64,000 nt of DNA from an uncultured Bacilli bacterium (lineage in GTDB: Bacteria > Bacillota_I > Bacilli_A > RF39 > UBA660): the NCBI GenBank assembly GCA_934148995.1, contig CAKPDM010000004.1, positions 17,814 through 81,813 of the forward strand, in the 5' to 3' direction. The notes under the pieces were generated by a model. It saw only the letters and a program-made list of their open reading frames with translations. It was not told the origin of the DNA and ran no database searches. A program made the translations under genes and the position numbers. Positions 94-26,883 of the stretch are shown piece after piece. Each line of letters starts with the position of its first letter. The stretch's first letter is position 1.

Positions 94-120
94 GACTTTA
101 ACTTAAAGTCCTATTTTTTT
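91..120. terminator. Bidirectional rho-independent terminator between convergent genes
   Basis: Arms TAGGACTTTA (91-100) and TAAAGTCCTA (104-113) form a perfect 10-bp stem. A T7 run follows on the + strand and a T-rich run follows on the - strand. Confidence 0.7.
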
Positions 121-124
121 GTCT

Positions 125-544
125 TTAATTTTTTATATATTTAGCATCTTTTAGTTTATTATATAGTTCTTTATCACTGACAGCACCAACAATCTTATTC
201 ATGACCTCTTCATTTCCTTTTTTAAAGAAACAGACAGTTGGTGTTCCGGAAACTTCAGTTATTTCATATAACTTATTTTTTTCTTCTTCTGTTAAATTAG
301 AAAGATTAATTGAATAGCCAGTCAAATCATATTTATTTAAGACATCTCTAAATCTAGGTGAGAATTCTTCACAATGAGAACAACCGGTCTGAATAATTTC
401 TAAAATAAAAGTTTCCTTATTTTCAATCTTACTTTGTAAAGTGGCAAAGTCAATTTCCTTTACAGTATTTAAACTGTTTTTACATCCAGTAAGAAATAAA
501 ACACCTACTAATATAATCAAAAAGATAATTCTCTTTTTTTTCAT
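125..544 (-). CDS. Thioredoxin-fold lipoprotein (extracytoplasmic thiol-disulfide oxidoreductase candidate)
   Basis: Signal peptide with lipobox LTGC. CxxC active-site motif in TGCSHCEEF. GTP motif typical of the Trx fold. RBS GAGGTG. Divergent from the pilus/T4SS operon. Confidence 0.75.
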   Translation of the reverse strand: MKKKRIIFLIILVGVLFLTGCKNSLNTVKEIDFATLQSKIENKETFILEIIQTGCSHCEEFSPRFRDVLNKYDLTGYSINLSNLTEEEKNKLYEITEVSGTPTVCFFKKGNEEVMNKIVGAVSDKELYNKLKDAKYIKN

Positions 545-596
545 TTACTACACCTCACAAGTAATTATAACAACCAAAAATACTATTTGTAAATAA

Positions 597-625
597 TTTA
601 CAACTCAAAATATTTTTGCTATACT
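597..625 (+). promoter_or_regulatory. Sigma-A-type promoter of the pilus/T4SS supercluster
   Basis: TTTACA (597-602), 17-nt spacer, extended -10 TGcTATACT (617-625), about 30 nt upstream of the first gene. Confidence 0.55.
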
Positions 626-656
626 AAAAATGATAATAATAAGGGGCGTGAACTAG

Positions 657-2195
657 ATGATATTAAGAAAACCATATGCGTTTTTGATTCAGTATTTTCA
701 AAGAATACATCTTGTTTTGTTAGGACTTTGCTTTTATATCTTTTATAAAACAAGTACATTACGTACTTTTGTCAGTGAATTTATTAGAACAGAAAGCTAT
801 AATGCCGATTTAGAGCCGATAAAAAATTATATAGGATTTTTACCAATTATCGTGATATTACTGTGCCTTGGTATTTTTCTTATTTTGATGATTTTATTGC
901 GACATAAAAAGAAACCATGGAAAATTTATTTAGTACCATTCTTTAGTTATATTTTCCTTTTAGGAGTAATGCTTTATATAAGGAATTTTTTTGTAACATA
1001 TAATGATATCTCCGATATAACTAAAATAATGGCCGGTCGAGATTTATTACTGATCGCTTATTTATTACAATTTGCAGTTTTTCTACTATTAATTCTTAGA
1101 ACATTAGGAATAGATTTAAATAAATTTGGTTTTAAAAATGATCAAGAATATTTAGAAATTAAAGAAGAAGATAGAGAAGAATTTGAACTTAGTTTACAAT
1201 TTGATAAAGATAGAGTTAGACGAACAGTTAATAAACTTTTTAGAAACATTGGTTATGTATATCAAGAACATAGATTTATACTTAATACGTTAATGACGGT
1301 ACTAGTTGTTATTTTAGTCGGCTATACTTATTACTACTTTGGAATACTTCATAAAATCTATAAAGAGAATCAAACCTTTAAATCAAATTTTTATGAGGTA
1401 ACTGTTTTAGATAGCTACCTAACTAATCGTAAAGACAATGGTGATTTAATTGAAAAAAATTCTAAATATTCTTATGTTATAGTTAAGTTAAAAGTAAAAA
1501 ATTTAGCTGGTGAAAGAAATATGTACACAGATAGGTTCCATCTTATTAATAGAAGTAATGAGGCCGATAGAACACCACAGTATCAGACTTATTTTTCGAC
1601 TTATGGAAAAGTATATGATAACTCTTCCTTTGATTATAATGAAACAAAAGTATTTAACTTAATCTACCGTGTTGATAAGGATTGGAAAAGTAAATACTAC
1701 ACTTTATATTATCAAGGCCTAGACAATTCTTTCCTTTTAAGAAAAGTTAAATTAAAGGTAAAAGACTATCAGACACCTGTCAAGACTTCAACTAAAAAAT
1801 TAAATCAAGAGATGAAGATAGAGGATAAGGACTTTACTTTTATAAATTATCAAGTAAGTGATAGTGCTATTTATAATTCATATAAGTGTTTTGGAACTGG
1901 TTGTAGTATCAGTCCAAGTACAGTTACATCTTATAATAAAGCTATTTTAAAAATTGATTATATAAGTGAGTATTTTGAACCAAAAACTTTTGTTGACTTT
2001 TCAACTAAGTATGCTAAAATTAAATATGAAGATAAAGATGGTAAGACTAGCAGTATAGATTGTGTTAATGCAGTTTCTAAAGATTATACCGATAATTCCT
2101 TGTATCTTAAAGTACCACTTGCTGTGAAAGAGGCTAATAAAATAGATTTAGTTTATACTGTGAATGGTAGTAAATATACCTATCATGTAAAATAG
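657..2195 (+). CDS. Polytopic membrane protein with a large C-terminal extracytoplasmic beta-rich domain; first gene of the cluster
   Basis: About 5 hydrophobic helices lie in the first 230 aa. The later segment (VTVLDSYL...VIVKLKVKNLAGE...FHLINRSNE) looks like a DUF4352-type Ig-like domain from memory. No A24 peptidase motifs were seen. Confidence 0.5.
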   Translation: MILRKPYAFLIQYFQRIHLVLLGLCFYIFYKTSTLRTFVSEFIRTESYNADLEPIKNYIGFLPIIVILLCLGIFLILMILLRHKKKPWKIYLVPFFSYIFLLGVMLYIRNFFVTYNDISDITKIMAGRDLLLIAYLLQFAVFLLLILRTLGIDLNKFGFKNDQEYLEIKEEDREEFELSLQFDKDRVRRTVNKLFRNIGYVYQEHRFILNTLMTVLVVILVGYTYYYFGILHKIYKENQTFKSNFYEVTVLDSYLTNRKDNGDLIEKNSKYSYVIVKLKVKNLAGERNMYTDRFHLINRSNEADRTPQYQTYFSTYGKVYDNSSFDYNETKVFNLIYRVDKDWKSKYYTLYYQGLDNSFLLRKVKLKVKDYQTPVKTSTKKLNQEMKIEDKDFTFINYQVSDSAIYNSYKCFGTGCSISPSTVTSYNKAILKIDYISEYFEPKTFVDFSTKYAKIKYEDKDGKTSSIDCVNAVSKDYTDNSLYLKVPLAVKEANKIDLVYTVNGSKYTYHVK

Positions 2196-2207
2196 GAAGG
2201 AACGAAT

Positions 2208-4004
2208 ATGAAAAATAAAGAATTAATTAAAAAGATAATTTTAATAGTAGCTGTTTTTGTATTATTATTTCTTCTATGGAATTTTGTACTTTACCCATAT
2301 CAAATGTTTAAACATAATGAAAAAATACTAAGTGAAGCTGGAAAAAGATATTTTTCCATCAATAGACGAAATTTACCAACAGAAGAGGGACGTGTTTCTA
2401 CCGTTTCTCTTGAAGTGCTTATTAAGCAAAAATATTTAGACGAATTAAAAATAAAAAATAGTATTTGTGATATAAAAAACAGTAATGTAAAGTTAAAAGT
2501 AGAAAGTGGAAAAGATGAGTATTATACTCATTTACAATGTGGCAATAGACATAGTAATATCGACTATAAAGGGCCAGTTATTACACTCAATGGTAAGAAA
2601 AATATGACTGTTAGTCTTGGAGATACTTATACAGAACCTGGAGTTTTAAGTGTTAAAGATAAAACAGATGGTACTATTAATAATAATGAAGTAGTAATCA
2701 AAGGAACAGTTGATACTAGTAAAATTGGTACTTATGAAATTACTTATAAAGTTGCTGATAGCTTAGATAATGAAACTACTGTTAAAAGAACAGTAGAGGT
2801 AATAGAATCACTTAGTAAAGTGGTAACAGAAGATACTAAAGGTACTAACAACTATTATAAAGGTACAAGTTCTGATAATTATGTAATGTTTAATAATATC
2901 TTATTTAGAATGGTTAAAATAAATAGTGATGGAACAGTAACAATTGCTAGTGAAAATCCTTTAGCTAATATTGATTATGGAGCAAAAAATAATAGATTTG
3001 ATGGCAGTAACATGGATGAATGGTTAAATAATTATTTTTATCCACAGTTAAATAATAAGAGTAAGAAATTAATAGTTTCTTCTAAATGGTGTGATGATAT
3101 TTATACTGAAGGAAAAACAACATGTGATAGATATAGTAAAACTAAAAATGTAGGTATTTTATCTTTACAAGATTATGTAAATTCTTTAGATGATTTAGGA
3201 ATGAGTTATTTAGGAATAGTAGCAAGGGTTTGGTATAACAATTTTGATAGTAACAATCAAGTTTGGTCTGGAAAATCAAATAATCAAACAGCCTATAATG
3301 ATAATATTCTCCTTAACATTAGGCCGGCTATTACCTTAAAGAAGGACACAAAAATAACTAGTGGTTCAGGAACAAAAGAAGATCCTTATTTGATTGGAAC
3401 AGAACAAGAAGTAAAAAGGAACATGAAAGTTAATAAACTTGATATTGGAACAGTAATCAGTTACTCAGGTTATAACTTTGTGGTGGCAGGACATCAGGAA
3501 GATGGTACAACAAAATTAATAATGAAAAGTGTTTTAAGAAATGAAGAGCATGCTGCAATTCAAATTTCTTACGATAATGCTAGTAGTGTAAAAATTTATA
3601 ATCCTAAAGAAAAAGGAAATATTGCTTATCAGATAAATAATAATTTATCTAAATACATTGATACAAGTTACTTTGTTAAAAAAGATGTAGTTGTTCCTAT
3701 TTATGATAAGTTAGTTACTTATAAAGGAAAACATGAGACTAAAACATATAAATCAAAATTAAGTATTCCATCGGCTTTTGATTTATTTAGTGGAGCTACT
3801 AATAATGCTGGAGAACCATTCTGGTTGATTGAATCTTCTAAGGAAGAAGAAAATAAAACCTATGTAGATGCCGATGGAACAACACCTTTCTATTATAAAC
3901 ATGTTGGTAGAAAAGTTGGTGTTAAACTTAAGGTCTATCTTGATAAAGATGCTTATATTAAGAGTGGAAATTGTAGGCATGAGGATTGCACGATTGCAAA
4001 ATAG
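2208..4004 (+). CDS. N-terminally anchored surface protein: bacterial Ig-like (DUF5011-type) domain plus a C-terminal domain paralogous to 25682-26875
   Basis: N-terminal TM helix. GPVITLNG...VSLGDTYTEPGV...DGT...GTVDTSKIGTYEITYKVADSLDNETTVKRTVEV matches the DUF5011 pattern. DNYVMFNNILFRMVKINSDGT and the ...GSGTKEDPYLI motif are shared with the last gene of the cluster. Confidence 0.6.
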   Translation: MKNKELIKKIILIVAVFVLLFLLWNFVLYPYQMFKHNEKILSEAGKRYFSINRRNLPTEEGRVSTVSLEVLIKQKYLDELKIKNSICDIKNSNVKLKVESGKDEYYTHLQCGNRHSNIDYKGPVITLNGKKNMTVSLGDTYTEPGVLSVKDKTDGTINNNEVVIKGTVDTSKIGTYEITYKVADSLDNETTVKRTVEVIESLSKVVTEDTKGTNNYYKGTSSDNYVMFNNILFRMVKINSDGTVTIASENPLANIDYGAKNNRFDGSNMDEWLNNYFYPQLNNKSKKLIVSSKWCDDIYTEGKTTCDRYSKTKNVGILSLQDYVNSLDDLGMSYLGIVARVWYNNFDSNNQVWSGKSNNQTAYNDNILLNIRPAITLKKDTKITSGSGTKEDPYLIGTEQEVKRNMKVNKLDIGTVISYSGYNFVVAGHQEDGTTKLIMKSVLRNEEHAAIQISYDNASSVKIYNPKEKGNIAYQINNNLSKYIDTSYFVKKDVVVPIYDKLVTYKGKHETKTYKSKLSIPSAFDLFSGATNNAGEPFWLIESSKEEENKTYVDADGTTPFYYKHVGRKVGVKLKVYLDKDAYIKSGNCRHEDCTIAK

Positions 4005-4018
4005 ATGAGAGGTAAACT

Positions 4019-4798
4019 ATGAAGAAAAAACAGAGAGTTATTTGTTTAACTGTTATAATCTTTATTTTAGCTTTTATTCTTTACTTTGTTAGTACAAGAC
4101 CAAAGATAAGTAAATTTAAGTTAGAAGATAAGACAAAACAAATAGAGGAAGTTAAAAAATATGGTGATACCATTGTTGGCTGGGTCACAGTAGAAGGAAC
4201 TAATATTGATTTACCTGTTGTTCAAGATAATGATTTATTAAATATGCAAGCGAGAGATTATGATCATATTTCAATATATTCAATTCCTGGAAGCAACAGT
4301 AATCATGTAAGTTTTATTTCACACAATATCAGAAATGTTTCTAGAAAACCAATTATTCATGATGATACTATGGAGGGGTTTGAACAACTGGTAAGTTTTA
4401 TATATCCATCATTCACTGCTGAAAATCAATATATTGCTTATACAGATCGTGATGGAAATCAAGCTATGTATCGAGTTTATGCAGTGGCTCTTGTTAATTA
4501 TGATCAATCCGCATCATATAAAAATGTTTATACAGAAAAAGAACAAGAAGAATATATAATTAAATCAAAAAAAGAAAGTATGTATGACATGGATATAGAT
4601 GTATCAAAAGATGATAAATTGATTAGTTTACTTACTTGTACTAGATTCTATGGTGCAAAAGATATATACTCTTTTAGAGTAGATGCTAGAAAATTACGTG
4701 ATGATGAAAAACAAGAACTAGTTAAAGTTAAAACTAATAAGAATTATGAAAAGATTGAGAAGAGAATGAAAGAAGGTGATACAAATGAAGAAGCGTAG
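4019..4798 (+). CDS. Sortase family transpeptidase (class B-like)
   Basis: N-terminal TM anchor. GWVTVEGTNIDLPVVQ entry motif. His in FISHNIRN, catalytic Cys in SLLTCTRFYG and Arg in FRVDARKL give the His-Cys-Arg triad in the expected order. Confidence 0.7.
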   Translation: MKKKQRVICLTVIIFILAFILYFVSTRPKISKFKLEDKTKQIEEVKKYGDTIVGWVTVEGTNIDLPVVQDNDLLNMQARDYDHISIYSIPGSNSNHVSFISHNIRNVSRKPIIHDDTMEGFEQLVSFIYPSFTAENQYIAYTDRDGNQAMYRVYAVALVNYDQSASYKNVYTEKEQEEYIIKSKKESMYDMDIDVSKDDKLISLLTCTRFYGAKDIYSFRVDARKLRDDEKQELVKVKTNKNYEKIEKRMKEGDTNEEA

Positions 4799-7601
4799 AG
4801 TAGTGTTGGCAGTTACTGCTATTCTTCTTGTTTGTGTTATAGCAAATCCCTTAAGGACAAAAGCTGAAGACGGTGTTAACTGTCCAAGTAGAGAACAATT
4901 TTTGGAGGATAACTTTAGTGTTGTTAATACACTTAGTGATGGAACTAAAGTAGCATATACTCAAAATGGTAATACAATAACTTTATCTGAAAAGGCTGCG
5001 AATATGCCAGAAGTAAAGGTATATGTAAATGGTCGGTTAGTTACTACTGATGAACATGGTAACATAACAATTGACTTAACCGCAGAAGAAGCAGCTTCTG
5101 GTACCAGTACTACAACCTTAATTGTTTCTTTTTCAAGAGTAGTTAAGGAAGGAGAAAAACCATGTACTAATGAAATTAACTATAGTTTCAATACAATTAA
5201 AGAAGCTCCTGACGAACCAGATGATGATGAGACTAAAGAGATAGAAAGAGAACTTGGTACTTTGCCTAATGAATCATCACCCATTGATGATTTAGAAGAT
5301 GAAAGTTTTACTAAAGTCAGTGATCCTACAAAAAGCACTAGTTTAAGTTGTGAATATGGTAAAAATGATGGTAAAACAATTAAAAAGTATACGCACAAAG
5401 GTGTTGTTTCTGATACTGGTGATTGTAAAACTACTTGCCGTGAAGATGTAGTAGTAACATTAGATCCACCAGTTATTACCCAATCAGGAATGTGCTTTAG
5501 TTACGTTGCTGATATCAAAACAAAGACAGTTTGTTCTGCAAAATTTACTGGAGTAAAACCGACAAAAATAAAAGGTTGTATTGCTCCTACTAACTGTTCA
5601 AGTGGTACACATGAAGGTGGACCAAGTTCATCATTTGATACTTGTATAGATTCTTGTGATGGAGGAGAATATACTCAAAGTTGTATTAATAAGTGCTATA
5701 ATCAAGTTTATGGTAAATCAACTACAACAAAAAAAGTTAGCGCTACATCAAAAAAAGAATCAAGTGTTAAGTATCTTAATAGCTTGAAGGAAGATAATGC
5801 TATTCCTACACCAATGGCTAATAAATTAAAAACTGTTAAAGTCACCCCTGATAAGGAAGTAACTTGTTACACAGATGAATATTTTAAAAGTACAAGAAAT
5901 ATGAGTGCTGATGAGTTAAAGGCATTAGCTCAAAAAGTTTATGAATCTAAGAAATATTTACCTGGTGGTTATTATGGAACTGGTACAGAAAGTACTTGGA
6001 CTCAAAGCGCTGGCCATTTCTATTATAATACTAGTAAAGGAACATGGTCATGGAAAAAGAATGGTGGATGTTCAAGTGCGATAAACTATTATTATTTTAG
6101 TACAGTAGATGAAACATATAACACTATTAAAATGCTTAATGGCTCAATTAAGTCAACTTCACCTACTTATTCAGCACTAGGATATTATAGACAATATGAA
6201 TCATTTGACGGTTCTTTGAAAAGAGCAAGATATTTAAAATCTGATGGATCTATTGCTTTTGCAAGTGAATGCTCAGATACTTGTACTATTACTACTAACT
6301 GTTCTGAAAAAGTTAAAAACTATACTGATGATAAGAAGTACATTGTTACTAGTGCTCAAGGTAATATGATTTATAAGGCAGAACTTAAGGCATATAAGAA
6401 GGCCAAACAAGCATGCATTAAGACTGCTAATTCATGTAAAACAATAAATAGTAGTTATGTTATTAAAACAGATGAAACTAGTAAGAACACTGGTAATAAT
6501 TTGGGTCATGAGTATAATTCTTCTCAGAATATTAATCAAGCTTCTTCATCTTCAAATAAATCTACTAAATCTGGAAATTTCCCAAGTATGATCATCAATA
6601 CTAATGGATTATGTATAACTGGCGAATGTGAGAATGTAAATCAGGAATACTGTAGTAGTCTTAAACCAGAATCAGCTGAATATGAAGCATATTGTAAAGA
6701 TAAGCAATCTTGTAAGTCGGCTGGAATAGCTGCTTGTAAGAATGGAGATACTTGTTATGATTATCATACGACGATTTCATTCCCTAAAAATTATATCAAC
6801 GTTAAGACTGGTCAAACAAAAGTTGAAATATCTAAAGATAAATTACCTTATTATGTGGCAGTAGGGAATGCATATTGTACAAGTTTAACTACTAAAGATG
6901 TTAATATAAATTGGTATAATTATAAATTAGATGATACTAATACAGTTAGTAAACCTACAAAGATTAATAATTATAATATTACTGGTAAAATAAATAGTTA
7001 TGGTGTGTTTGGTTGGAATTTTGATTTCTCATGTTTCTTTGCAATTAAAAATCCATGTGTACAGGGTACTAAAAATTGTCCACCTGAAGAACCGGACAAT
7101 CCTGACACTCCTGATAATCCTGGCAATCCTGACAATCCTGACACTCCTGATAATCCATTAACTTCGAAAGTTAAAGTTCGTTCTGTAAATCTATCTAATC
7201 TATTCCCTAATAGAGCAGCAAGATTTAACTGGTCTGCAAATGCAACGAATAAAAATAATGTTAATTATAAAGTTGATCCAATAACACTTAGAAAAAATAT
7301 AGAAGCAACTGGAGATGCCGTTTATGACTCAGCTAATGAAAATAAATATTTAGATTATCATATTAAATTAACAAAATCAGCAATAACTACAATCAGAAAC
7401 TACAACAGTGGAAAAACTTATAATGATACAAGTGATGGAACAGGACTTAATAGACTATCTGGTCAAGGTACATGGGGGGTTACAGTTTATCGAAGTAAAC
7501 TTTTAGATCAACTAGGAACGTCAGTTATTACTAAACGTGGACTTATCGGATGTAACAACCAAACAAGTTCTACAACTTGTAATACAGAAGGAGGTAATTA
7601 G
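4785..7601 (+). CDS. Large secreted Cys-rich protein (about 938 aa) with a PDNP repeat; candidate adhesin or filament-associated protein
   Basis: Signal peptide MKKRRVVLAVTAILLVCVIANPLRTKA/EDG. Dozens of Cys residues are spread along the mature protein. PEEPDNPDTPDNPGNPDNPDTPDNP linker. No C-terminal sorting signal or TM helix. ATG 4785 was preferred over GTG 4776 because of RBS spacing. Confidence 0.6.
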   Translation: MKKRRVVLAVTAILLVCVIANPLRTKAEDGVNCPSREQFLEDNFSVVNTLSDGTKVAYTQNGNTITLSEKAANMPEVKVYVNGRLVTTDEHGNITIDLTAEEAASGTSTTTLIVSFSRVVKEGEKPCTNEINYSFNTIKEAPDEPDDDETKEIERELGTLPNESSPIDDLEDESFTKVSDPTKSTSLSCEYGKNDGKTIKKYTHKGVVSDTGDCKTTCREDVVVTLDPPVITQSGMCFSYVADIKTKTVCSAKFTGVKPTKIKGCIAPTNCSSGTHEGGPSSSFDTCIDSCDGGEYTQSCINKCYNQVYGKSTTTKKVSATSKKESSVKYLNSLKEDNAIPTPMANKLKTVKVTPDKEVTCYTDEYFKSTRNMSADELKALAQKVYESKKYLPGGYYGTGTESTWTQSAGHFYYNTSKGTWSWKKNGGCSSAINYYYFSTVDETYNTIKMLNGSIKSTSPTYSALGYYRQYESFDGSLKRARYLKSDGSIAFASECSDTCTITTNCSEKVKNYTDDKKYIVTSAQGNMIYKAELKAYKKAKQACIKTANSCKTINSSYVIKTDETSKNTGNNLGHEYNSSQNINQASSSSNKSTKSGNFPSMIINTNGLCITGECENVNQEYCSSLKPESAEYEAYCKDKQSCKSAGIAACKNGDTCYDYHTTISFPKNYINVKTGQTKVEISKDKLPYYVAVGNAYCTSLTTKDVNINWYNYKLDDTNTVSKPTKINNYNITGKINSYGVFGWNFDFSCFFAIKNPCVQGTKNCPPEEPDNPDTPDNPGNPDNPDTPDNPLTSKVKVRSVNLSNLFPNRAARFNWSANATNKNNVNYKVDPITLRKNIEATGDAVYDSANENKYLDYHIKLTKSAITTIRNYNSGKTYNDTSDGTGLNRLSGQGTWGVTVYRSKLLDQLGTSVITKRGLIGCNNQTSSTTCNTEGGN
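7095..7156 (+). repeat. In-frame direct repeat encoding the (DNPDTPDNPGNP) Pro/Asp/Asn linker
   Basis: GACAATCCTGACACTCCTGATAATCC occurs at 7095-7120 and again at 7131-7156, a 36-nt period. Confidence 0.8.
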
Positions 7602-7603
7602 TA

Positions 7604-8095
7604 ATGAGTAAAGCAATGGCTATAGTTGGAATTATACTTCTTGCTATATTTACCTTTGGAGTTATTAATATCGCATCTAGTTATCAAACAGGTAATGAAC
7701 TTGATTATTACTTATTAAAAGAAACAACAGAAGCAGCTATGGTAGATGCAGTAGATATTGGGTATTATCGTTTAAGCGGTGGATTATATCGAGTAGATAA
7801 AGAAAAATTTGTTGAAAGTTTTGTGCGCCGCTTTGCCCAAAACGTTTCTAATGATAGAGAATATGATATCAAAATTTATGATATTAATGAAACCCCTCCA
7901 AAAGTAACAATAAAGATTGATTCATATACAGCAGAAGGTTTTAGTGGAGACAATCTAGAAATCTCTAATAGAATTAGTAGTATTATGGAAACAGATTATG
8001 AAACAAATGAATTGATTACTAAAATGGTAAATAGTGGGCAGTTAGATTATAGTAAAATAGATGAGACTTATACGAGAGCATTAGCTGCAAGTTAG
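7604..8095 (+). CDS. Small N-terminally anchored protein; candidate minor pilin/pseudopilin
   Basis: Single N-terminal hydrophobic helix (AMAIVGIILLAIFTFGVINI) followed by a soluble domain. Position is just upstream of the CpaB/TadA genes. No diagnostic motif. Confidence 0.3.
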   Translation: MSKAMAIVGIILLAIFTFGVINIASSYQTGNELDYYLLKETTEAAMVDAVDIGYYRLSGGLYRVDKEKFVESFVRRFAQNVSNDREYDIKIYDINETPPKVTIKIDSYTAEGFSGDNLEISNRISSIMETDYETNELITKMVNSGQLDYSKIDETYTRALAAS

Positions 8096-8116
8096 AATAG
8101 AAAGGAAGATGTAGAA

Positions 8117-8938
8117 ATGAACAATATTAGTGTAGGAATCAAAAAATTTCTCGCCAACAAGAATACTGTTACAGTTGTTGGTGTAATACTAGCAATAATA
8201 GTTTTATATGTAGGATATAATATGCGTGTTAAAAATGCTATTAATCCTGTTAGTGTACCATATGCTTTAAAAACAATTAATCCAGGTACACAAATTACTG
8301 ATGAAATGATAGGAACAATGGAAATACCTCCTGCTATGTTAAAGGGAGATGTAGTTACCAAAAAGTCCAGTGTAGTTGATATGTATTCTGCTATAGATAG
8401 TATAATTCCAGAAGGTAGTTTATTTTATGGTAGAAGTGTCGTAAGTAAAGAATCACTTCCAGGTAGTATTATCTTAGATTACCCTAAAAATTATGTTTTA
8501 TATAACTTAGAAGTAGATATGGCAAGTACTTATAGTAACTCTATTGTACCAGGTAATTATATTGATATTTACTTAAAGGTTATGAACCATGTTGATAATA
8601 ATCAAACAGTAACTGAAGAAAATGATAAGATTATGGTTGGTAAGTTATTACAAAATGTTAAAGTACTAGGAGTATATGATAGCAATGGACAAAGTGTTTT
8701 TGCTAATAGTGAAGAGAACAGAACTCCAGCACAAATCATTTTTGCGGTACCAGAAGAGTATCATATCTTATTACGTAAAGCTTCTTACTTAAGAGCATAC
8801 GATTCTGAAATTATTCCAGTACCAACTAATGAAAGTCTAGAGAAAAATCCAGGTGAAGTTAAGCTTTCAAATGAAGACTTGAAGAACTTTATTAATAAGG
8901 TAACTGCAATGACAGAAGCAGATTTAGCAACACAATAA
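8117..8938 (+). CDS. CpaB/RcpC-like Flp pilus assembly protein (SAF domain)
   Basis: N-terminal TM helix, then a SAF-like segment (VPYALKTINPGTQITDEMI). Size and position immediately upstream of the TadA-like ATPase fit the family. Confidence 0.55.
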   Translation: MNNISVGIKKFLANKNTVTVVGVILAIIVLYVGYNMRVKNAINPVSVPYALKTINPGTQITDEMIGTMEIPPAMLKGDVVTKKSSVVDMYSAIDSIIPEGSLFYGRSVVSKESLPGSIILDYPKNYVLYNLEVDMASTYSNSIVPGNYIDIYLKVMNHVDNNQTVTEENDKIMVGKLLQNVKVLGVYDSNGQSVFANSEENRTPAQIIFAVPEEYHILLRKASYLRAYDSEIIPVPTNESLEKNPGEVKLSNEDLKNFINKVTAMTEADLATQ

Positions 8939-8959
8939 TATAGGAAAGAGGAAATAAAA

Positions 8960-10315
8960 ATGAATGGATCTATTTTTGATAAATTAGACTTTGGAGTTTT
9001 AAAACCATTATTAGACGATGATGATATAACAGATATCTCTTATTCTAATCATGGTCAAGTATGGATTCGTTCTTTAACATATGGTTCTAAGAGAGTAGAA
9101 GTAGAAGGACTTAATGATGCTTTTATGGAAAAACTTGCCTTTCAGTGTTCTAATGTAATGGGAACAACATTCAATAATGCAAAACCATTCTTAGACGCTG
9201 AAAGCGCAGAACTTCGTTTAAACTTTGTACATGAATCTATTGCTACTAATGGTATTGCTGCTGTTATTCGTAAAACACCAGCTAAGATTAGACTTTCTAA
9301 AGAAAAGCTATTAAAAGAGGATTATTTCACTGCTAATATTCACGATTTATTGATTAAATGTGTTGAAGGACATTGTAACATAATGGTTAGTGGTGAAACT
9401 GGTTCTGGTAAAACTGAGTTTGTTAAGTATTTGGCAAGTCATACAAAGGAAAACGAAAAGATTATTACAATTGAAGATACACTTGAACTTCATTTGGATA
9501 AAATATTTCCACATAGAGATATAGTAGCAATGAAAACTAACAATATTGCTAGTTATACAGATGTATTAGTTACTTGTATGCGTCAGAATCCAAAATGGAT
9601 TTTATTATCAGAGGTTCGTAGTGCTGAAGCAGTTACTGCTGTTCGAAACTCAATATCATCTGGACATAACATTTTATCAACAATACATGCTGATAAAGCA
9701 AGTGCTATTCCGTATCGTTTGTATTCATTACTAGAAACAGATATTGATGTTGATCAGTTCTTAAATACTATCTATCGTTATGTTCAATTGGGTGTTCATA
9801 TTAAAGCTTATTATAGTAAAGAATATGGAAAATTCCATCGTGAAGTAGATGAAGTAGTAGAGTTTTATGTTGATGATGAAAATAAGCCGATCGCTCATAC
9901 TCTTTATCAAAAAACTTATGGTAAAGCGCCAGTTCAAAATATGCCTAGTGATCACTTAAGAGAGTATTTGGAAAATCAAAATATCAATATAGATAATTTA
10001 TTAACTTCTAAAGGTGATTCATTACAAGATTTAGAAAATGAACTAGAAAAGATAAATACGGTAGAAGAAGTTGCTAATTCTAGTAATCAAGCAGTTCAAA
10101 CAGCGCCAGCTAATATGCAAGTGCCACAAATGCCTGAACAAGTACAGCAATCTAGTAGTCCAGTTTTTCAAACACCACAGACAAGTCCACAATATGTAAA
10201 TACGCAAAATTATAATACTGGTGTTAGCACTACTAATACGGTAGTAATGCCAACTGAACCAATAAAAGATGAAATGTCTTTACCAAAGATTCCATTTCCA
10301 AATGAGGTGTTATAG
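8960..10315 (+). CDS. tadA: TadA/CpaF-family (T2SS-E/VirB11 superfamily) secretion ATPase with a Gln/Pro-rich C-terminal extension
   Basis: Walker A VSGETGSGKTEF. MRQNPKWILLSEVR (Walker B/Asp box). His box GHNILSTIHA. The last ~100 aa are low complexity (QVPQMPEQVQQSSSPVFQTPQTSPQ). Confidence 0.8.
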   Translation: MNGSIFDKLDFGVLKPLLDDDDITDISYSNHGQVWIRSLTYGSKRVEVEGLNDAFMEKLAFQCSNVMGTTFNNAKPFLDAESAELRLNFVHESIATNGIAAVIRKTPAKIRLSKEKLLKEDYFTANIHDLLIKCVEGHCNIMVSGETGSGKTEFVKYLASHTKENEKIITIEDTLELHLDKIFPHRDIVAMKTNNIASYTDVLVTCMRQNPKWILLSEVRSAEAVTAVRNSISSGHNILSTIHADKASAIPYRLYSLLETDIDVDQFLNTIYRYVQLGVHIKAYYSKEYGKFHREVDEVVEFYVDDENKPIAHTLYQKTYGKAPVQNMPSDHLREYLENQNINIDNLLTSKGDSLQDLENELEKINTVEEVANSSNQAVQTAPANMQVPQMPEQVQQSSSPVFQTPQTSPQYVNTQNYNTGVSTTNTVVMPTEPIKDEMSLPKIPFPNEVL

Positions 10316-10329
10316 GAAGGAGGAAGCGT

Positions 10330-11223
10330 ATGGTACTTTTCTTATTAATATTAATTGGAGTAGGGGTACTTCTTTATAGAAACTATCAAGGTCAAAATGT
10401 TTCAAAATATATAACTTCTCAAGTACAAGTTATATATGACAAATTTGCTCCATATTCATTTAAAGTAGTTAGAGAGAAAGCCAAGGAATTAGGCCAAGAA
10501 TTTACACCACGTCAATATGCAATGCAGGTGGCTATATTAGGTGGTTTTGCCGGGCTAGTAACTTATTTATATTTTTATAATATTTTAGCCAGTATTCTTT
10601 ATATAGTAGCAGCTGTTGCTTCGGTACCTTATCTTGCTTATTTAAGATGTAAAAGAGTTTATAGTGAGTTCGTATTTGAACAAATTCAAGTTTATACAAC
10701 AAACGTTATTATGGAATTTGCTACCACTCAATCTTTTGTTAAATCTTTAGAGGGAGTAAGAGATTCAGGTATATTGGAAGACCCTGTTCTATCAGATGTT
10801 AATACCATGATCGAGATGGCTTATGAAAACGGTTCTATCGATGAAGCTATTAACTATATGAACGAAAAATATCCTTATTATATAGTAAAAAATATGCATC
10901 AATTATTCTTACAAATTACTAAAGAAGGTGCAAGAGATACTGGTGAAAGTTTGGAAAACATGCAGTTAGATATCGATACTTTAGTTGAAAGTGTTTATAG
11001 AGATAGAATGGATAGATCAAACTTTCATAAGAAATTTTTACAATATGGTGTTATTCTTTACTTGTTGGTTATGCTTGTTCAATATATGCTTGGTAGAGAA
11101 AATTATTTAGCATTAATTGATAAAAGGTATGTTAGGGTAATACTACATGGTATAATTCTTTTCAATGCCTATTTCCTTCTTAAAGGTGAAAAATATTATA
11201 ATGAGAATGTGGGGGCTGAGTAG
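10330..11223 (+). CDS. TadB-like platform protein (GspF/T2SS-F topology)
   Basis: N-terminal TM helix, a TM pair, a ~130-aa cytoplasmic helical domain and a C-terminal TM pair. Lies directly after the TadA-like ATPase. Confidence 0.55.
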   Translation: MVLFLLILIGVGVLLYRNYQGQNVSKYITSQVQVIYDKFAPYSFKVVREKAKELGQEFTPRQYAMQVAILGGFAGLVTYLYFYNILASILYIVAAVASVPYLAYLRCKRVYSEFVFEQIQVYTTNVIMEFATTQSFVKSLEGVRDSGILEDPVLSDVNTMIEMAYENGSIDEAINYMNEKYPYYIVKNMHQLFLQITKEGARDTGESLENMQLDIDTLVESVYRDRMDRSNFHKKFLQYGVILYLLVMLVQYMLGRENYLALIDKRYVRVILHGIILFNAYFLLKGEKYYNENVGAE

Positions 11224-11225
11224 AT

Positions 11226-12005
11226 ATGGAAGTAATTATTGTAGCAGTTATTATAATTGGTGTTCTACTTTACAATCACACAATTGATAAAGATAAATTT
11301 ATCAAAGATAATGCTAAATATTTTAATCTTTTAAGAGAAGATGATTATAACTTTTTAGTAGCTGCAAAATATGGTGACAAAGCTGATAGTGATGTATTAT
11401 TTCAAAAAAGAATTAATCTTGGTGTTTTAACAATTTTTTTTGTTATGTTTATACAGCTTAATTCATTAAGTCTTTTAAATATATTGTTAGCGGTAATAAT
11501 TGGTTTTTTAGCTTTTAAGTATCCTTATATGACACTTAAAAATTATTATAAAAAACATTTGCATGATATTGATGTAATGTTGCCATACTATTTAAAGGGA
11601 CTAGAAATTTTAATTCAACATTATACAGTTCCAGTTGCTATTGGTAAAAGTATTCCTGATGCTCCAGATATATTTAAACCAGGTCTTACTGATATGATAG
11701 AAAAAATTAATGCAGGTGATTCATCAATTCAACCATATATGGATTTTGCTAACGAATATCCAGTAAGAGATTCAATGCGAATGATGCGTTTACTTTATCG
11801 TTTAGGTATTGGTGGGCAAGAGAAGAAACAAGAAAGATTATTAATGTTTTCAAAAACGGTATCAAATTTACAAGCCAAGGCACGTGAGACTAAATATAAA
11901 GAACGTCTTGATCATATGGGAAATCAAACAATGATCATGTTAGTTGTTACTGGTGTTAGTGTTATGGTGGTAATATTAATTTCTATGATGTCTATGGTTA
12001 TGTAA
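11226..12005 (+). CDS. TadC-like platform protein (GspF/T2SS-F topology)
   Basis: Same topology as the preceding gene and tandem with it. Confidence 0.5.
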   Translation: MEVIIVAVIIIGVLLYNHTIDKDKFIKDNAKYFNLLREDDYNFLVAAKYGDKADSDVLFQKRINLGVLTIFFVMFIQLNSLSLLNILLAVIIGFLAFKYPYMTLKNYYKKHLHDIDVMLPYYLKGLEILIQHYTVPVAIGKSIPDAPDIFKPGLTDMIEKINAGDSSIQPYMDFANEYPVRDSMRMMRLLYRLGIGGQEKKQERLLMFSKTVSNLQAKARETKYKERLDHMGNQTMIMLVVTGVSVMVVILISMMSMVM

Positions 12006-12022
12006 AGAATCAAGAAAATTAG

Positions 12023-12050
12023 TTACAAATAAATAAATATTTGCTATAAT
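12023..12050 (+). promoter_or_regulatory. Strong sigma-A-type promoter in front of the small pilin gene
   Basis: TTACAA (12023-12028), 16-nt spacer, extended -10 TGcTATAAT (12042-12050). Confidence 0.55.
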
Positions 12051-12081
12051 GTTTATATGATAGGAAAGGAGAATGATATAA

Positions 12082-12237
12082 ATGAAAGAGGCAACAGGAG
12101 AGTTAAACATGACAGTAGTTACAATAGTTTTGATAGGAGTTATAACAGCTTTCTTTACAGCTTTTTGGCCAACTATCAGAACTAAGATTCAAACTACTTG
12201 GAATAAAACAAATAATACCCCTCAAAATTTACGTTAA
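12082..12237 (+). CDS. Flp-like (type IVc) pilin candidate, 51 aa; absent from the supplied ORF track
   Basis: RBS AGGAAAGGAG sits 10 nt upstream of the ATG. Translation is MKEATGELNMTVVTIVLIGVITAFFTAFWPTIRTKIQTTWNKTNNTPQNLR: a short charged leader ending in Gly, a ~20-aa hydrophobic helix and a short polar tail. It lies between the TadC-like and TadE-like genes. Confidence 0.55.
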   Translation: MKEATGELNMTVVTIVLIGVITAFFTAFWPTIRTKIQTTWNKTNNTPQNLR

Positions 12238-12251
12238 AGAGGTGAAGTACA

Positions 12252-12749
12252 ATGCGTGAAGCGATTGGTGGAGTATTTACATTACAAATTATCTTAGTGT
12301 TTGTAATACTGATAAATGGGTATATGGCATATTCTGTCAATTATACTCGCGCCTTTCGAGTTAAAAATAGTATAATAAATATTATCGAAGAACGAGAAGG
12401 TTTTTCGGAAGGATCAAAGGCTGCAGAGGAAATTAGTTCCTTAGTAAAAACGGCTGGTTATGGTCTTTCTTCAGTTCAACAACAAGCAGTAAGAAATATG
12501 AATCATCAAAATGGTTGGTATTGTAGCGGAGCAGATGGCTATTGTGTAAAGTGTATTGATAATACTGGTAATAATGCAATTAACGTTGACGATGCATCTT
12601 ATCGCGGAGTTTATTATACTGTTAAGACTTATGTAAATATGGATATTCCTATTCTTAATAGAATATTTACTGGTTTACCAGACTTCTTATCAGTAAGAGG
12701 AGATACTAAAACAGTATATGCTAAGAATGGATGTCAAGCTATGAATTAG
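12252..12749 (+). CDS. TadE-like pseudopilin candidate (Cys-rich extracytoplasmic domain)
   Basis: The N-terminus MREAIGGVFTLQIILVFVILINGY parallels the leader of the small pilin (M-[KR]-E-A-x-G). One N-terminal helix. 5 Cys residues in the soluble part. Confidence 0.45.
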   Translation: MREAIGGVFTLQIILVFVILINGYMAYSVNYTRAFRVKNSIINIIEEREGFSEGSKAAEEISSLVKTAGYGLSSVQQQAVRNMNHQNGWYCSGADGYCVKCIDNTGNNAINVDDASYRGVYYTVKTYVNMDIPILNRIFTGLPDFLSVRGDTKTVYAKNGCQAMN

Positions 12750-12764
12750 AAAGGAGGGAACGAC

Positions 12765-13742
12765 ATGTATGTAATAGTTGCAAATGAAGCTAAAGATATG
12801 TTATCCCGCCTTGATATTGATGTAATGAAGAGTGTTGAGGGAGTTCATACAGCAGAAGAGATTGTCTCTATGTTTAAGAACTTCTTTTATGCTAGAATGA
12901 TTCTTGATATTACAGCTATTCAGGATTATGATAATATCACTAATATTCAAAAGATTTCTATTGGTTTAGATGCAGAGAAGATAATTCTTGTTTTACCAAA
13001 TAACGAAATTTCAACATCTAGTAGCTATTTATCAAAAATTATATCAATGGGTATTTATAACTTTACTACTAATTTAGATGGTATTAAGTATTGCTTAGAA
13101 CATCCAAATACTTATAAGGATGTAGCACATATTCAACAGCTTAATACTTTATCTAGTACAATTAATGAGAAAGTTATGAGTGGTAACCAAATTATTGGTA
13201 TCAGGAATGTTACTGATCATGCTGGTTCAACAACACTGATTTATATGTTAAAGAAAGAGTTAGAGCAAACTTATGGAATGAGTGTCTTAGCTCTTGAAAT
13301 AAACAAACATGATTTTCTTTACTTCAATGATAAAAATATGATTTCAACGACAGATTCTAATTTAATGACAGAAATAGTTAAACATAAAGATGCTTCTGTT
13401 ATATTGATTGATTTAAATGATTCTGATAATGATGGCGTATGTAGTGACGTGCTATATCTATTAGAGCCATCTAGTATTCGTCTTAATAAATTAATGCGAA
13501 GAAATAGAAAAATATTTGAAGAATTGCGAGGAAAGAAGATAGTTTTAAATCAAAGTTTATTAACTAATAAAGATGTAATGGACTTTGAATATGAAGGAAG
13601 AACTAAAGTCTTTTATAATCTTCCCCCTTTGAACGATAGAGAGAAAAATCCAGTTCTTACCGATTTTTTAGCAAAATTAGGACTTTTAAGTAAAAATGAA
13701 ACTAAAGATGATGGTAAAATTTTTGGATTATTCAAACGTTAA
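12765..13742 (+). CDS. TadZ/CpaE-like protein (receiver-like N-domain plus ParA/MinD-like fold with a degenerate Walker A)
   Basis: The N-terminal ~110 aa have a CheY-like alternation. IIGIRNVTDHAGSTTLIYMLKKEL occupies the P-loop position but lacks the Lys. ILIDLND sits where a Walker B would be. The position fits TadZ. Confidence 0.35.
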   Translation: MYVIVANEAKDMLSRLDIDVMKSVEGVHTAEEIVSMFKNFFYARMILDITAIQDYDNITNIQKISIGLDAEKIILVLPNNEISTSSSYLSKIISMGIYNFTTNLDGIKYCLEHPNTYKDVAHIQQLNTLSSTINEKVMSGNQIIGIRNVTDHAGSTTLIYMLKKELEQTYGMSVLALEINKHDFLYFNDKNMISTTDSNLMTEIVKHKDASVILIDLNDSDNDGVCSDVLYLLEPSSIRLNKLMRRNRKIFEELRGKKIVLNQSLLTNKDVMDFEYEGRTKVFYNLPPLNDREKNPVLTDFLAKLGLLSKNETKDDGKIFGLFKR

Positions 13743-13745
13743 TAA

Positions 13746-13774
13746 TTGACAAATAATATGATTTTTTATATCAT
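13746..13774 (+). promoter_or_regulatory. Sigma-A-type promoter at the start of the T4SS half
   Basis: TTGACA (13746-13751), 17-nt spacer, TATCAT (13769-13774), followed by RBS GAAGGAG. Confidence 0.55.
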
Positions 13775-13798
13775 AGTAGGTGAGAAGGAGAAATTGGT

Positions 13799-14155
13799 AT
13801 GAATTTAGGTTTACAAATATTAGCTGATGTTGGTGAGCCAACTGAAACTTGTAAAGGTTTATTATTCTTAGTAAGAATTGTTCGTAAAGGTATATTTCCT
13901 ATTTTACAAATTGGTATTCCAATTATCTTAATTGTTTTAGGTACCTTAGATTTAGGAAAGGCAGTTATTGCATCAGATGATAAACAAGTTAAGGAAGCTC
14001 AAGGTAAATTAATTAAACGTTGTATTTATGCTGTTGCTGTGTTCTTTATCGTTACGCTTGTTAATGTTATTTTATCTATGGTGGCTACAACTGCTGGAGA
14101 TGAAGTAACGGGTATGACTGATTGGCGTGACTGTTGGAATGCTGCCGGTAATTAA
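13799..14155 (+). CDS. T4SS pilin-like (VirB2/TrbC-like, Firmicutes 'T4SS_pilin' type) small membrane protein
   Basis: Two hydrophobic helices flank the conserved loop LDLGKAVIASDDKQVKEAQGKLIKR. This is remembered as the hallmark of pilin-like conjugal transfer proteins in Firmicutes and Mollicutes. Confidence 0.55.
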   Translation: MNLGLQILADVGEPTETCKGLLFLVRIVRKGIFPILQIGIPIILIVLGTLDLGKAVIASDDKQVKEAQGKLIKRCIYAVAVFFIVTLVNVILSMVATTAGDEVTGMTDWRDCWNAAGN

Positions 14156-14259
14156 TATTTGGGAAATAGTAAATATAGAAATTGCTATTTTCTTTTTTTT
14201 TTGGTACAATTATTTTGATTAGCTTGTTTTTGAGAACATGCTTTCTTGGAGGAACCCTT

Positions 14260-15465
14260 ATGAGAAAAAAGAATGCTATTTATTTCGTTATTATTAGTTT
14301 AATATTTTGTGTGTTTTTGACTCCTAGTGTAGTAAATGCGGATGGCTCTTGTACATACAAATTAGATGTAGATTCTTTGGGATTGTCTGCAGCGTTGAAA
14401 TCTGCATCTTTTACCATAACTGTTAAAGATAATGGTAAAGTTACTAAGGGAAAATTAAAGTTTGTTAATATTAATGATACAAAGGAAGAAGCCGAATTAA
14501 CGTCAGGAGTTAATTTAGATGGCCAACATACTTTAATGTATAAAAAAATGTTTGATGACAATGGGGATTTTTATAAAGCTTATAAAAAGAGAAATAACTG
14601 TCCATCAATGCAGTTTATAAATCAAGATAGTTCCGGTATCTCAGCAATTAAGATGGTGTTAAATGGACAAGAGACTACTATCGATAATAGTAATTCGACC
14701 AGCACTCCAGAAAGCACTGATCCAAATAGAGCTCAAAAGAAAATTTATTGTAATAATATAGAGAAAGATATGCGTGATGTAAAATCTGGTAAAGTCTATT
14801 TTACTACTTATGAGGTAAATGGGGTAAAATTGTTTAGCGTAGTTTTAAAATCTAAAGGAAAAAAAGTTGGAGATGCTACTGATATTAATTATAATGCTAC
14901 TGCTAATATTCTATATGGTGGAACGAGCTTTAGCTTTCTTGTAAACTCTGCAGATTATGATACTTATTGGAGTACAAAATGTTCTGACACATCTACAAAT
15001 ATATATATGAAGGCGGATGGAGGTTCTGCGAGTACCACTAGAGTATTCCAAACTACGCTTCCATCGACAACTGAAAATGGTTCATACAATGCGGCGGAGG
15101 CAAAATATGATACTGGTAAATCAACAGCTCCGACATATAAAGATAAGTCTTCATTGAATGATTTAAACAAGAAATATGATCAATGCAGTCAAATAATAGA
15201 TATGTCTGAGGGAAAATTTGGATGGCTTCTTCAAAAAATATTAAATTATATAAAAATAGCTGGCCCAATACTAGTTGTACTTTTAAGTGCTCTTGATTTT
15301 ATTAAAGCGGTTGCTTCTAGCGATGAGAATGTGTTTAAAAAAGCTCAATCTAGACTTGTTATTAGGTTGGTTGCGGCACTTGCTTTATTTTTGGTTCCTA
15401 CACTTGTACAATTATTACTTGGTTTAATTAATGGTATAACTGATTCGTCGTGCGGACTTAAATAG
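14260..15465 (+). CDS. Secreted ~330-aa domain fused to a C-terminal T4SS pilin-like two-helix module
   Basis: RBS GGAGGA and ATG at 14260, with signal peptide ...SVVNA/DGSC. The C-terminus GPILVVLLSALDFIKAVASSDENVFKKAQSRLVIRLVAALALFLVPTLV aligns by eye with the 118-aa protein upstream. Confidence 0.55.
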   Translation: MRKKNAIYFVIISLIFCVFLTPSVVNADGSCTYKLDVDSLGLSAALKSASFTITVKDNGKVTKGKLKFVNINDTKEEAELTSGVNLDGQHTLMYKKMFDDNGDFYKAYKKRNNCPSMQFINQDSSGISAIKMVLNGQETTIDNSNSTSTPESTDPNRAQKKIYCNNIEKDMRDVKSGKVYFTTYEVNGVKLFSVVLKSKGKKVGDATDINYNATANILYGGTSFSFLVNSADYDTYWSTKCSDTSTNIYMKADGGSASTTRVFQTTLPSTTENGSYNAAEAKYDTGKSTAPTYKDKSSLNDLNKKYDQCSQIIDMSEGKFGWLLQKILNYIKIAGPILVVLLSALDFIKAVASSDENVFKKAQSRLVIRLVAALALFLVPTLVQLLLGLINGITDSSCGLK

Positions 15466-15481
15466 TAAGGAGTTGATATAA

Positions 15482-17554: not shown

Positions 17555-17575
17555 TCTAAGAAGGAGTGTGACTAG

Positions 17576-20206: not shown

Positions 20207-20230
20207 AAGTAGTTAGGTGGTGAAGAAGAG

Positions 20231-22606: not shown

Positions 22607-22618
22607 GGGAGATAAAAC

Positions 22619-23404: not shown

Positions 23405-23432
23405 GTGATACTAATTTTCTTTCTTTAACTGA

Positions 23433-23461
23433 TTGTGAGACATTATTTTCTATGATATAAT
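23433..23461 (+). promoter_or_regulatory. Sigma-A-type promoter upstream of the coupling-protein gene
   Basis: TTGTGA (23433-23438), 17-nt spacer, extended -10 TGaTATAAT (23453-23461). Confidence 0.45.
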
Positions 23462-26875: not shown

Positions 26876-26883
26876 TATTTGTT

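Follow-up and report, generated by a model that had tools for sequence, protein, structure and literature searches.

A thioredoxin-fold lipoprotein gene divergent from a Tad-like/type IV secretion operon with cysteine-rich exported proteins in uncultured gut Bacilli

In F-type type IV secretion systems (T4SSs), TrbB, a CXXC disulfide isomerase, and TraF act beside the host proteins DsbA and DsbC on the Cys-rich proteins TraN, TraU and TraH. TrbB of the F plasmid is dispensable, while F-plasmid TraF is a thioredoxin-fold protein without redox activity. Among Gram-positive bacteria, the disulfides in two competence proteins of Bacillus subtilis, ComGC and ComEC, depend on BdbD and BdbC; T4SSs of this group are, to our knowledge, usually described without disulfide-dependent parts. 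A His residue in the active-site dipeptide is typical of oxidising or isomerising enzymes, such as DsbA and protein disulfide isomerase (PDI). Enzymes of the PedC/BrcD type are encoded beside the disulfide-containing exported substrate that they serve, and PedC raises the potency of pediocin, an effect for which correct disulfide formation was offered as a speculation (PMC4919988). Inactivation of tra09, in the T4SS cluster of the Lactococcus lactis plasmid pNP40, has only a minor effect on plasmid transfer, the gene being non-essential (PMC8194271). Here we describe a gene for a thioredoxin-fold lipoprotein (from this point on, the Trx lipoprotein) that is divergent from a Tad-like/T4SS operon of ~26 kb in an uncultured Bacilli bacterium (GCA_934148995.1, here G000; 1.36 Mb, ~28% GC, 95% complete). 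The window, meaning the whole 64,000-nucleotide stretch that was analysed, corresponds to G000:C4:17814-81813. We propose, with moderate confidence, that the Trx lipoprotein is an accessory, co-expressed extracytoplasmic oxidase or isomerase for disulfide-rich proteins of the Tad/T4SS operon, dispensable where paralogues can substitute for it.

The Trx lipoprotein begins MKKKRIIFLIILVGVLFLTGC and carries the lipobox LTGC (Cys21), which conforms to the pattern [LVI][ASTVI][GAS]C of predicted bacterial lipoproteins. Its CSHC motif occupies residues 55-58, with a buried Glu49 six residues before the CXXC and a cis-Pro loop, G100-T-P102-T, farther on. The protein scores 42.8 bits against the Pfam model Thioredoxin (PF00085), for which the cut-off is 23.5. 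In an alignment of orthologues from 18 congeners the CXXC, the Glu, the GTPT loop and the lipobox are all invariant, and the orthologues retain L(T/S)GC or a similar lipobox together with QTGCSHCEEF(S/T)PRF and GTPTV. The active-site motifs seen in relatives are CSHC (22), CSAC (6), CHNC (2), and CPHC, CQHC, CIHC, CTHC, CHYC, CHWC and CEYC (1 each). The AlphaFold2 (AF2) model (pLDDT 87.8) has the order beta-alpha-beta-alpha-beta-alpha-beta-beta-alpha, with the CXXC at the start of helix 2 (56-71), and contains neither a DsbA-type helical domain nor a TlpA-type insertion. Its best matches among PDB folds are classical thioredoxins (TMt 0.77-0.80), and by sequence PDI a-domains (CGHC) come closest among solved proteins; one of them, PDIA4, at 6.7e-12, is aligned over E-x5-C-x-H-C and the cis-Pro loop.

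Even the NCBIfam models that fit the Trx lipoprotein best (pdi_dom, the PedC/BrcD disulfide isomerase and TrbB) score far under their cut-offs. The score is 23.8 bits against 132 for TrbB (TIGR02738) and 20.3 against 23 for TraF (PF13728), which places the protein outside both F-type families; for PedC/BrcD (TIGR01295) it is 35.3 against 120, and the gene neighbours are typA and the Tad/T4SS operon. Membership of the DsbA/BdbD type is likewise not indicated, as the model has no helical insertion and no DsbB or VKOR partner was found in G000 or four relatives. The closest relatives encoded on plasmids, at 30-35% identity, are thioredoxin-family genes of glycocin and bacteriocin clusters, whose products are dedicated oxidoreductases there, plus one PedC/BrcD gene. 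The Trx lipoprotein belongs to the thioredoxin superfamily and to no curated subfamily. In sequence and modelled fold it shows all that is expected of an active thiol-disulfide oxidoreductase, including a C-x-H-C site in the style of PDI and DsbA.

One candidate client is the large secreted protein encoded in the operon, hereafter the giant. Read from the ATG at 4785, it has 938 amino acids and 34 Cys residues (3.6%; the genome mean, from a crude gene call, is 1.04%), one in the signal peptide and 33 in the mature protein, in strings such as CIAPTNCSSG, CIDSCDGGEYTQSCINKC and CITGECENVNQEYC. Among 21 orthologues from the genus, which share ~30% identity, no residue type is as well conserved as Cys (0.78, with Trp at 0.61 and all others at 0.15-0.53), and ~24 Cys columns are invariant. 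In an alignment of 56 proteins reaching down to 25% identity, 12 Cys never vary and a further 9 are conserved in at least 90% of sequences, a pattern beyond chance. Those that vary do so in company: columns 923 and 932 occur together in 50 sequences and are jointly missing from 6, column 818 is accompanied by one C-terminal column (21 vs 35 sequences) and column 134 by an insert column, and a six-Cys module, present in 24 sequences, is gained or lost as one (phi = 1.0 in every case). This paired gain and loss is partly a matter of shared ancestry, yet it is the behaviour of disulfide partners.

The giant also has four CX3C motifs. Two of them form the twin-CX3C sequence CIDSC-x8-CINKC (C287/C291 and C300/C304; window 5640-5700), which lies in the AF2 model on helices 282-292 and 298-309. 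The position sums are equal (C287+C304 = C291+C300 = 591), and equal sums on two consecutive helices give the register of an antiparallel, stapled twin-CX3C hairpin; the modelled arrangement thus fits a putative hairpin resembling those of the small Tim/CHCH proteins. The giant matches no Pfam or NCBIfam family, and its AF2 model (pLDDT 71.9) has no PDB fold match at E <= 0.001. The stop codon of the sortase gene overlaps the start of the giant gene, which by synteny is always followed immediately by the DUF5411 gene. As a separate observation, the cassette of immunoglobulin-like (Ig-like) protein, sortase, giant and DUF5411 protein is tandemly duplicated in a related lineage (L054, ENA scaffold, homologue P0048, 7399-19780).

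Conserved Cys residues are not limited to the giant. Each of the two Ig-like/DUF6273 'bookend' proteins has 6 Cys, 4 of them invariant (100%): C87/C111 and C295/C306 in bookend 1, which has in addition a clade-specific pair at 589/594, and C127/C148 and C278/C295 in bookend 2, where C321/C329 form a co-varying pair. In the first protein of the operon (512 amino acids), C411 and C416 are each 97% conserved in 32 homologues, and the catalytic Cys207 of the sortase is invariant. The TadE-like protein (12252-12749), which contains YCSGADGYCVKCIDN, has 4 Cys: C91 and C98 are 80-90% conserved, unlike C101 and C161. Cys counts in the pair of T4SS-pilin-type proteins are 3 and 8. Very divergent homologues of the 118-residue VirB2-like protein keep C18 (...TCKGL...) before, and C112 (...DCWN...) after, its two-helix hairpin, and one homologue carries a weak match to PF18895 (T4SS_pilin). 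It may be speculated that an N-to-C disulfide in this protein would mimic the head-to-tail cyclisation of TrbC/VirB2 pilins.

A consensus scan of the intergenic region, which reports consensus matches only, predicts two back-to-back, sigma-70-like promoters of the near-consensus extended -10 type. The minus-strand promoter, for the Trx gene, reads TTTACA-18-TG-TATAAT (593..564, 11/12 matches, with the -35 at 593-588), and the plus-strand promoter, for the operon, reads TTTACA-17-TG-TATACT (597..625). Both -10 boxes are kept across 18 congeners. The two -35 hexamers abut, which creates the palindrome TGTAAATAATTTACA at window 586-602; in G000 and its closest congeners this palindrome is a possible shared operator. 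The first-pass annotation of this DNA had reported a lipoprotein with a CSHC thioredoxin motif on the opposite strand, a promoter region common to it and the operon, dozens of Cys residues, often in close pairs, in the secreted protein, and extracytoplasmic Cys in the TadE-like, T4SS-pilin-domain and bookend proteins, and all of these features are found where it placed them.

The position of the Trx gene recurs well beyond G000. Front genes of the cluster are present in 20 of the 24 congeners sampled first, and in 17 of the 24 the Trx gene is directly adjacent and divergent; in two further congeners (G004 and G007) it is cut off at a contig end. In the family as a whole, a Trx homologue is found at E <= 1e-8 in 67 of 149 genomes, 60 of them clear matches. 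The gene lies no more than 25 kb from CpaF or VirB4 in 30 of these 60 genomes, from 21 genera, with a median distance of 8.6 kb. Where the genes share a contig the same holds in 30 of 32 cases, for which random placement predicts ~9%, the formal P value of the linkage being inflated by relatedness among the genomes. The Trx gene adjoins non-homologous Cys-rich giants of 1064-1385 amino acids with 37-53 Cys in four genomes (G186, G078, G168 and G054), and it adjoins clusters having only the T4SS half in three others (G051, G045 and G087). In G056, it lies inside the cluster between two cassettes whose giants have 51 and 53 Cys. The adjacency is kept beside different flanking genes, in at least five flanking contexts, and also occurs in one genome of another family (G030). 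Two lineages at a greater distance have the cluster after greA, without a Trx gene. The linkage is positional and recurrent, not obligatory.

Three congeners (G001, G003 and G013) were considered as cluster-less 'empty sites' of the form typA-repeat gene-spoVAC and were rejected, the apparent sites being assembly gaps or unresolved replacements. In four congeners ORF1 (open reading frame 1) and the genes for the giant, CpaF, VirB6 and the Trx lipoprotein are missing together, from assemblies that are 66-92% complete. G001 carries window 18356-26911 beside spoVA (VirB4 99% identical) on a contig that ends at VirB4, and G003 has VirB4 on a 1.8-kb contig. The four congeners are gapped over window ~100-18350 and are not cluster-less relatives. 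In gapped congeners of the G001 kind, homology to G000 ends precisely at the stop codon of typA. In close relatives, the space between spoVAC and the last gene of the cluster holds an inserted multi-copy gene of ~300 residues (MTKKFIKPLYDTTIKYLVK...), which breaks assemblies at both cluster borders (G001:C29:5723-6973; G003:C9 end and G003:C35 start).

The features of the locus are collected in Table 1. The block 657-26875 is a single co-directional unit, preceded on its 5' side by infC, rplT, rpsB, tsf and typA/bipA (assigned by reading translations) and followed, 3' of position 26875, by spoVAC/AD/AE. An orthologue of VirB4 (window 18416-20206) occurs, at 64-92% identity, in 141 of the 149 sampled family genomes, and the CpaF-like Tad-type ATPase (window 8960-10315) in 126 of them. 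Both are near-universal, vertically kept chromosomal genes of the family. The machine cannot be called a mobile island, and the scanned proteins of the cluster showed neither a relaxase nor an integrase. In this family of gut Bacilli, whose genomes are small, the Tad/T4SS operon is a core trait. Homologues of the window proteins derive from gut metagenomes, one of them named Candidatus Onthousia faecipullorum, from a chicken-gut genus placed in Bacilli incertae sedis. The organism of G000 is presumably a gut anaerobe.

Table 1. Position, strand and basis of assignment of features at the Trx lipoprotein and Tad-like/T4SS locus (window coordinates).
Feature	Position	Strand	Basis or remark
Bidirectional hairpin terminator	84-120	both strands	common to typA/bipA (+) and Trx gene (-); typA end ~93
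Trx-fold lipoprotein, 139 amino acids	125-544	-	Pfam Thioredoxin, lipobox, CSHC
Divergent promoter region	545-656	both strands	consensus scan; 112 bp
First operon gene, 512-residue membrane protein with extracytoplasmic domain	657-2195	+	open reading frame; weak DUF4352 match
'Bookend 1', 598-residue membrane-anchored Ig-like/DUF6273 protein	2208-4004	+	Pfam Bact_surface_Ig-like 2.9e-21
Class-B-like sortase	4019-4798	+	Pfam Sortase; NCBIfam srtB-like below cut-off
938-residue secreted Cys-rich protein (giant)	4785-7601	+	Cys counts, conservation; open reading frame 4776-7601
DUF5411 membrane protein, without Cys	7604-8095	+	Pfam 7.3e-47; synteny
Tad-like module	8117-13742	+	RcpC/CpaB-like, CpaF/TadA-like ATPase, two TadB/C-like, 51-residue Flp-like, TadE-like, TadZ-like (Pfam)
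118-residue two-helix T4SS-pilin-type (VirB2/PrgI-like) protein	13799-14155	+	alignment of divergent homologues
T4SS module, first part	14182-26875	+	secreted protein with C-terminal pilin-type module, VirB6/TrbL-like, small membrane protein, split VirB4 (Pfam)
T4SS module, rest	14182-26875	+	SpoIID-domain wall hydrolase, 261-residue protein, VirD4 coupling protein, DUF6273 'bookend 2' at 25670-26875 (Pfam)

In the mechanism that we propose, the Trx lipoprotein would be a minimal, lipid-anchored thioredoxin-fold enzyme positioned on the outer face of the membrane, transcribed from a putative promoter back-to-back with that of the Tad-like pilus and T4SS operon. As the cluster proteins leave the Sec channel, its C-S-H-C site would form disulfides in them or, more likely, proof-read and reshuffle disulfides. 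The fold, the motifs, the anchoring signal, the recurrent adjacency and the conserved Cys with their paired turnover are observed; that disulfides exist in these proteins, the redox direction of the enzyme and the list of its clients are what we infer. The candidate clients are the giant with its 33 mature Cys, both Ig-like/DUF6273 proteins through their conserved Cys pairs, the membrane protein encoded first in the operon, the TadE-like pseudopilin and the N- and C-terminal Cys pair of the VirB2-like protein. The Trx lipoprotein would aid folding as an accessory and not as an essential part, and lineages without it presumably rely on other exported thioredoxin-fold proteins, such as the 188-residue CHYC and 239-residue CPWC proteins of G000.

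A number of observations weigh against this proposal, above all against an exclusive tie between the Trx lipoprotein and the cluster. No Trx homologue is found in 18 of the 31 sampled genomes that have a clear homologue of the giant, and the gene occurs in 13 of the 31 genomes with the 938-residue family vs 54 of the 118 without it, which is no enrichment. Giants of Trx-less genomes keep 23-39 Cys; in two genera entirely without the gene (g29 and g39) they keep 23-36. To illustrate, in G005 only ~155 bp separate ORF1 from typA, the assembly nowhere contains a Trx gene, and the giant keeps 33 Cys; G132 and G141, from a second sample, likewise lack the Trx gene but have the cluster and a giant with 33 Cys. 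In four genomes (G096, G089, G067 and G118), the Trx gene lies away from the cluster. A recycling partner was not seen either: DsbB (PF02600) and VKOR (PF07884) gave no matches in G000 and four relatives, with matches obtained in control genomes, and no ordinary CcdA was found in the genome scans. Full pairing of the Cys residues in the giant gains no support from an even-number test, as the mature count is odd in 41 of 56 homologues; one thiol of the giant is therefore probably free or intermolecular.

The remaining objection comes from the wider redox context of the genome. Besides a cytoplasmic TrxA, G000 encodes two further exported, membrane-anchored thioredoxin-fold proteins, the 239-residue CPWC protein (G000 C11:23852-24571) and the 188-residue CHYC protein (G000 C7:16410-16976), the latter just over the Pfam TraF cut-off and conserved in the genus, Trx-less genomes included. 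On contig C12 (8441-18034, minus strand) there are three giants with type-IV-prepilin N-termini, KKGFTL(I/V)ELLAT..., namely of 1452 residues with 110 Cys (7.6%), 863 residues with 49 Cys and 660 residues with 28 Cys (4.2-7.6% overall). They adjoin comEA/comEC-like genes (assigned by eye), and no Trx gene is adjacent. Given these paralogues and Cys-rich giants, clients of the Trx lipoprotein need not be confined to its own locus, and the demand for oxidative folding in G000 is not confined to the T4SS locus. It had been stated at first that exported Cys-rich proteins are uncommon in Firmicutes. Firmicutes are indeed generally thought to avoid Cys in exported proteins, and this fits mainly the aerobic species, 70% of whose exported proteins lack Cys, against 33% in anaerobic Firmicutes (PMC2823432). 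G000, with its Cys-rich proteins on C12, is itself not poor in Cys beyond the locus.

These results bear on two suggestions of the first-pass annotation. The co-conservation of the Trx gene with the cluster, which it had put forward as a check, is seen as linkage (30 of 60 genomes, 21 genera) and not as co-occurrence with the giant. Its suggestion that the lipoprotein could be the dedicated oxidoreductase or isomerase of the apparatus is supported in part, by the catalytic features, the recurrent linkage and the conserved, pairwise-varying Cys of the exported cluster proteins. The absence of the Trx gene from more than half of the giant-bearing genomes leaves 'dedicated' or 'required' unsupported, and the two paralogues and the C12 giants also speak against the word.

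The strongest competitor, which we consider rather unlikely, is that the Trx lipoprotein is a general housekeeping oxidoreductase serving the whole exported proteome, the C12 giants included, and that its place at the cluster border is historical, the gene having been an ancestral flank gene on the typA/trmL side. Exported proteins richer in Cys than those of the cluster do exist elsewhere in the genome with no Trx gene adjacent, and presence of the gene is uncorrelated with the 938-residue family. In G096 and G089, the gene stays near trmL with the cluster elsewhere, and the genes that flank the cluster on its Trx side (DAGK-like, ABC transporter, trmL and typA) are the same in several genera. 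However, the persistence of the adjacency across at least five flanking contexts, and once inside the cluster (G056), argues that the Trx gene travels with the cluster. Moreover, it is the 188-residue CHYC paralogue, more widely conserved and present in Trx-less genomes too, that looks like the housekeeping enzyme, and the compact, conserved, predicted back-to-back promoters suggest co-regulation of the Trx gene with the operon.

Less probable still, and in our judgement distinctly so, is a reductase of the ResA/StoA/CcmG or pneumococcal Etrx-like kind, which would keep extracytoplasmic thiols reduced or repair oxidised residues, for example Cys207 of the sortase or the odd Cys of the giant. 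The modelled fold is that of classical, reducing thioredoxins, the operon encodes a sortase with an essential thiol, the giant retains one unpaired Cys in most homologues, and reductive surface thioredoxin-fold lipoproteins are known in Firmicutes (PMC3914529). Such an enzyme lacks an ordinary electron supplier of the CcdA or DsbD type here. A DsbD_TM protein was considered as a CcdA-like partner, being absent from Trx-less genomes, but it proved to be an HMA::DsbD_2 fusion (432 amino acids) in a copper operon, csoR-HMA::DsbD_2-copA (G000 C7:33167-36961), and was rejected. This fusion, the only DsbD-type protein in G000, is missing from the four relatives examined, which are Trx-less, a pattern that we count against a reductase. 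The model has no TlpA/ResA-type insertion, and the C-x-H-C site and the PDI/PedC-like sequence affinities point instead to oxidation or isomerisation. Very improbable, finally, is the view that there is no functional link and there are no disulfides, the cluster Cys binding metals or staying reduced in an anaerobic gut and the Trx lipoprotein having an unrelated or non-redox role (chaperone-like or TraF-like): DsbB and VKOR were not found, many lineages do without the gene, and F-plasmid TraF sets the precedent of an inactive thioredoxin fold, but the CXXC, the buried Glu and the cis-Pro are strictly conserved, unlike in TraF, the CX3C pairs and paired gain and loss, unaccompanied by His or Asp ligand motifs, are disulfide patterns, and the positional association is far over chance.

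The accessory oxidase or isomerase that we favour can be extended to a bolder reading, which we regard as doubtful, in which the whole Tad/T4SS machine is a disulfide-built extracellular apparatus in a presumably anaerobic monoderm without DsbB, VKOR or CcdA. An N-to-C disulfide would close the VirB2-like subunit into a pseudo-ring, a possible chemical stand-in for the head-to-tail cyclisation of TrbC/VirB2. The giant, as a tip or contact protein, would be stapled by ~16 disulfides, and this fast-evolving protein may keep one free thiol for an intermolecular bond. The Trx lipoprotein would then be a stand-alone oxidase or isomerase, and it may be recycled by some other acceptor.

An entire family of gut Bacilli, as yet uncultured, maintains a pilus/T4SS on the chromosome with exposed proteins built around conserved Cys, and about half of the Trx-bearing lineages encode the putative folding catalyst at the head of the cluster. 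If the accessory role is correct, the locus would supply a defined pair of enzyme and client through which oxidative folding could be studied in anaerobic monoderms without recycling by DsbB, VKOR or CcdA. It would also give a practical requirement for expressing these surface proteins, and a marker for locating the variable proteins of the machine, which are probably those in contact with a host or partner. The general picture is unchanged, because secretion systems and bacteriocins already provide examples of accessory thioredoxin-fold proteins; as a helper, the Trx lipoprotein would be of a familiar type, met here in new surroundings.

How far the likeness to each known system goes can be set out as follows. 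With TrbB and TraF of the F-type T4SSs, the Trx lipoprotein shares a thioredoxin fold, an accessory character and a gene position with a T4SS that has Cys-rich extracytoplasmic parts; it differs in its monoderm host, its predicted lipid anchor, the missing DsbA/DsbB background and its unrelated clients. With BdbD and BdbC, it shares the theme of a Firmicute oxidoreductase serving a type-IV-filament or DNA-transport apparatus, whereas BdbD is DsbA-like with a helical insertion and works with the DsbB-type BdbC, and here we find a minimal thioredoxin without DsbB or VKOR. The PDI a-domains (PDIA4, PDB 3idv) have the same ...E-x5-C-x-H-C...(F/Y/T)-P-T... layout, a similarity at the superfamily level only; PDI is eukaryotic, and the Trx lipoprotein is single-domain, bacterial and by prediction lipid-anchored. 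Its nearest relatives outside the lineage, at 30-35% identity, are PedC/BrcD and the oxidoreductases of glycocin and sublancin clusters (TIGR01295; BdbA/BdbB-like), which are likewise small thioredoxin-fold proteins, membrane-tethered or exported. The Trx locus differs from theirs in having no bacteriocin, ABC exporter or glycosyltransferase nearby, and the presumed clients are large machine components instead of peptides. Tra09 of pNP40 is, as here, the product of a thioredoxin-like gene within a Gram-positive T4SS cluster, a likeness of gene setting. It is predicted to have no membrane domain, is borne by a plasmid on a true conjugative element and has no Cys-rich giant described beside it, whereas its non-essential nature matches the dispensability that we propose for the Trx lipoprotein.

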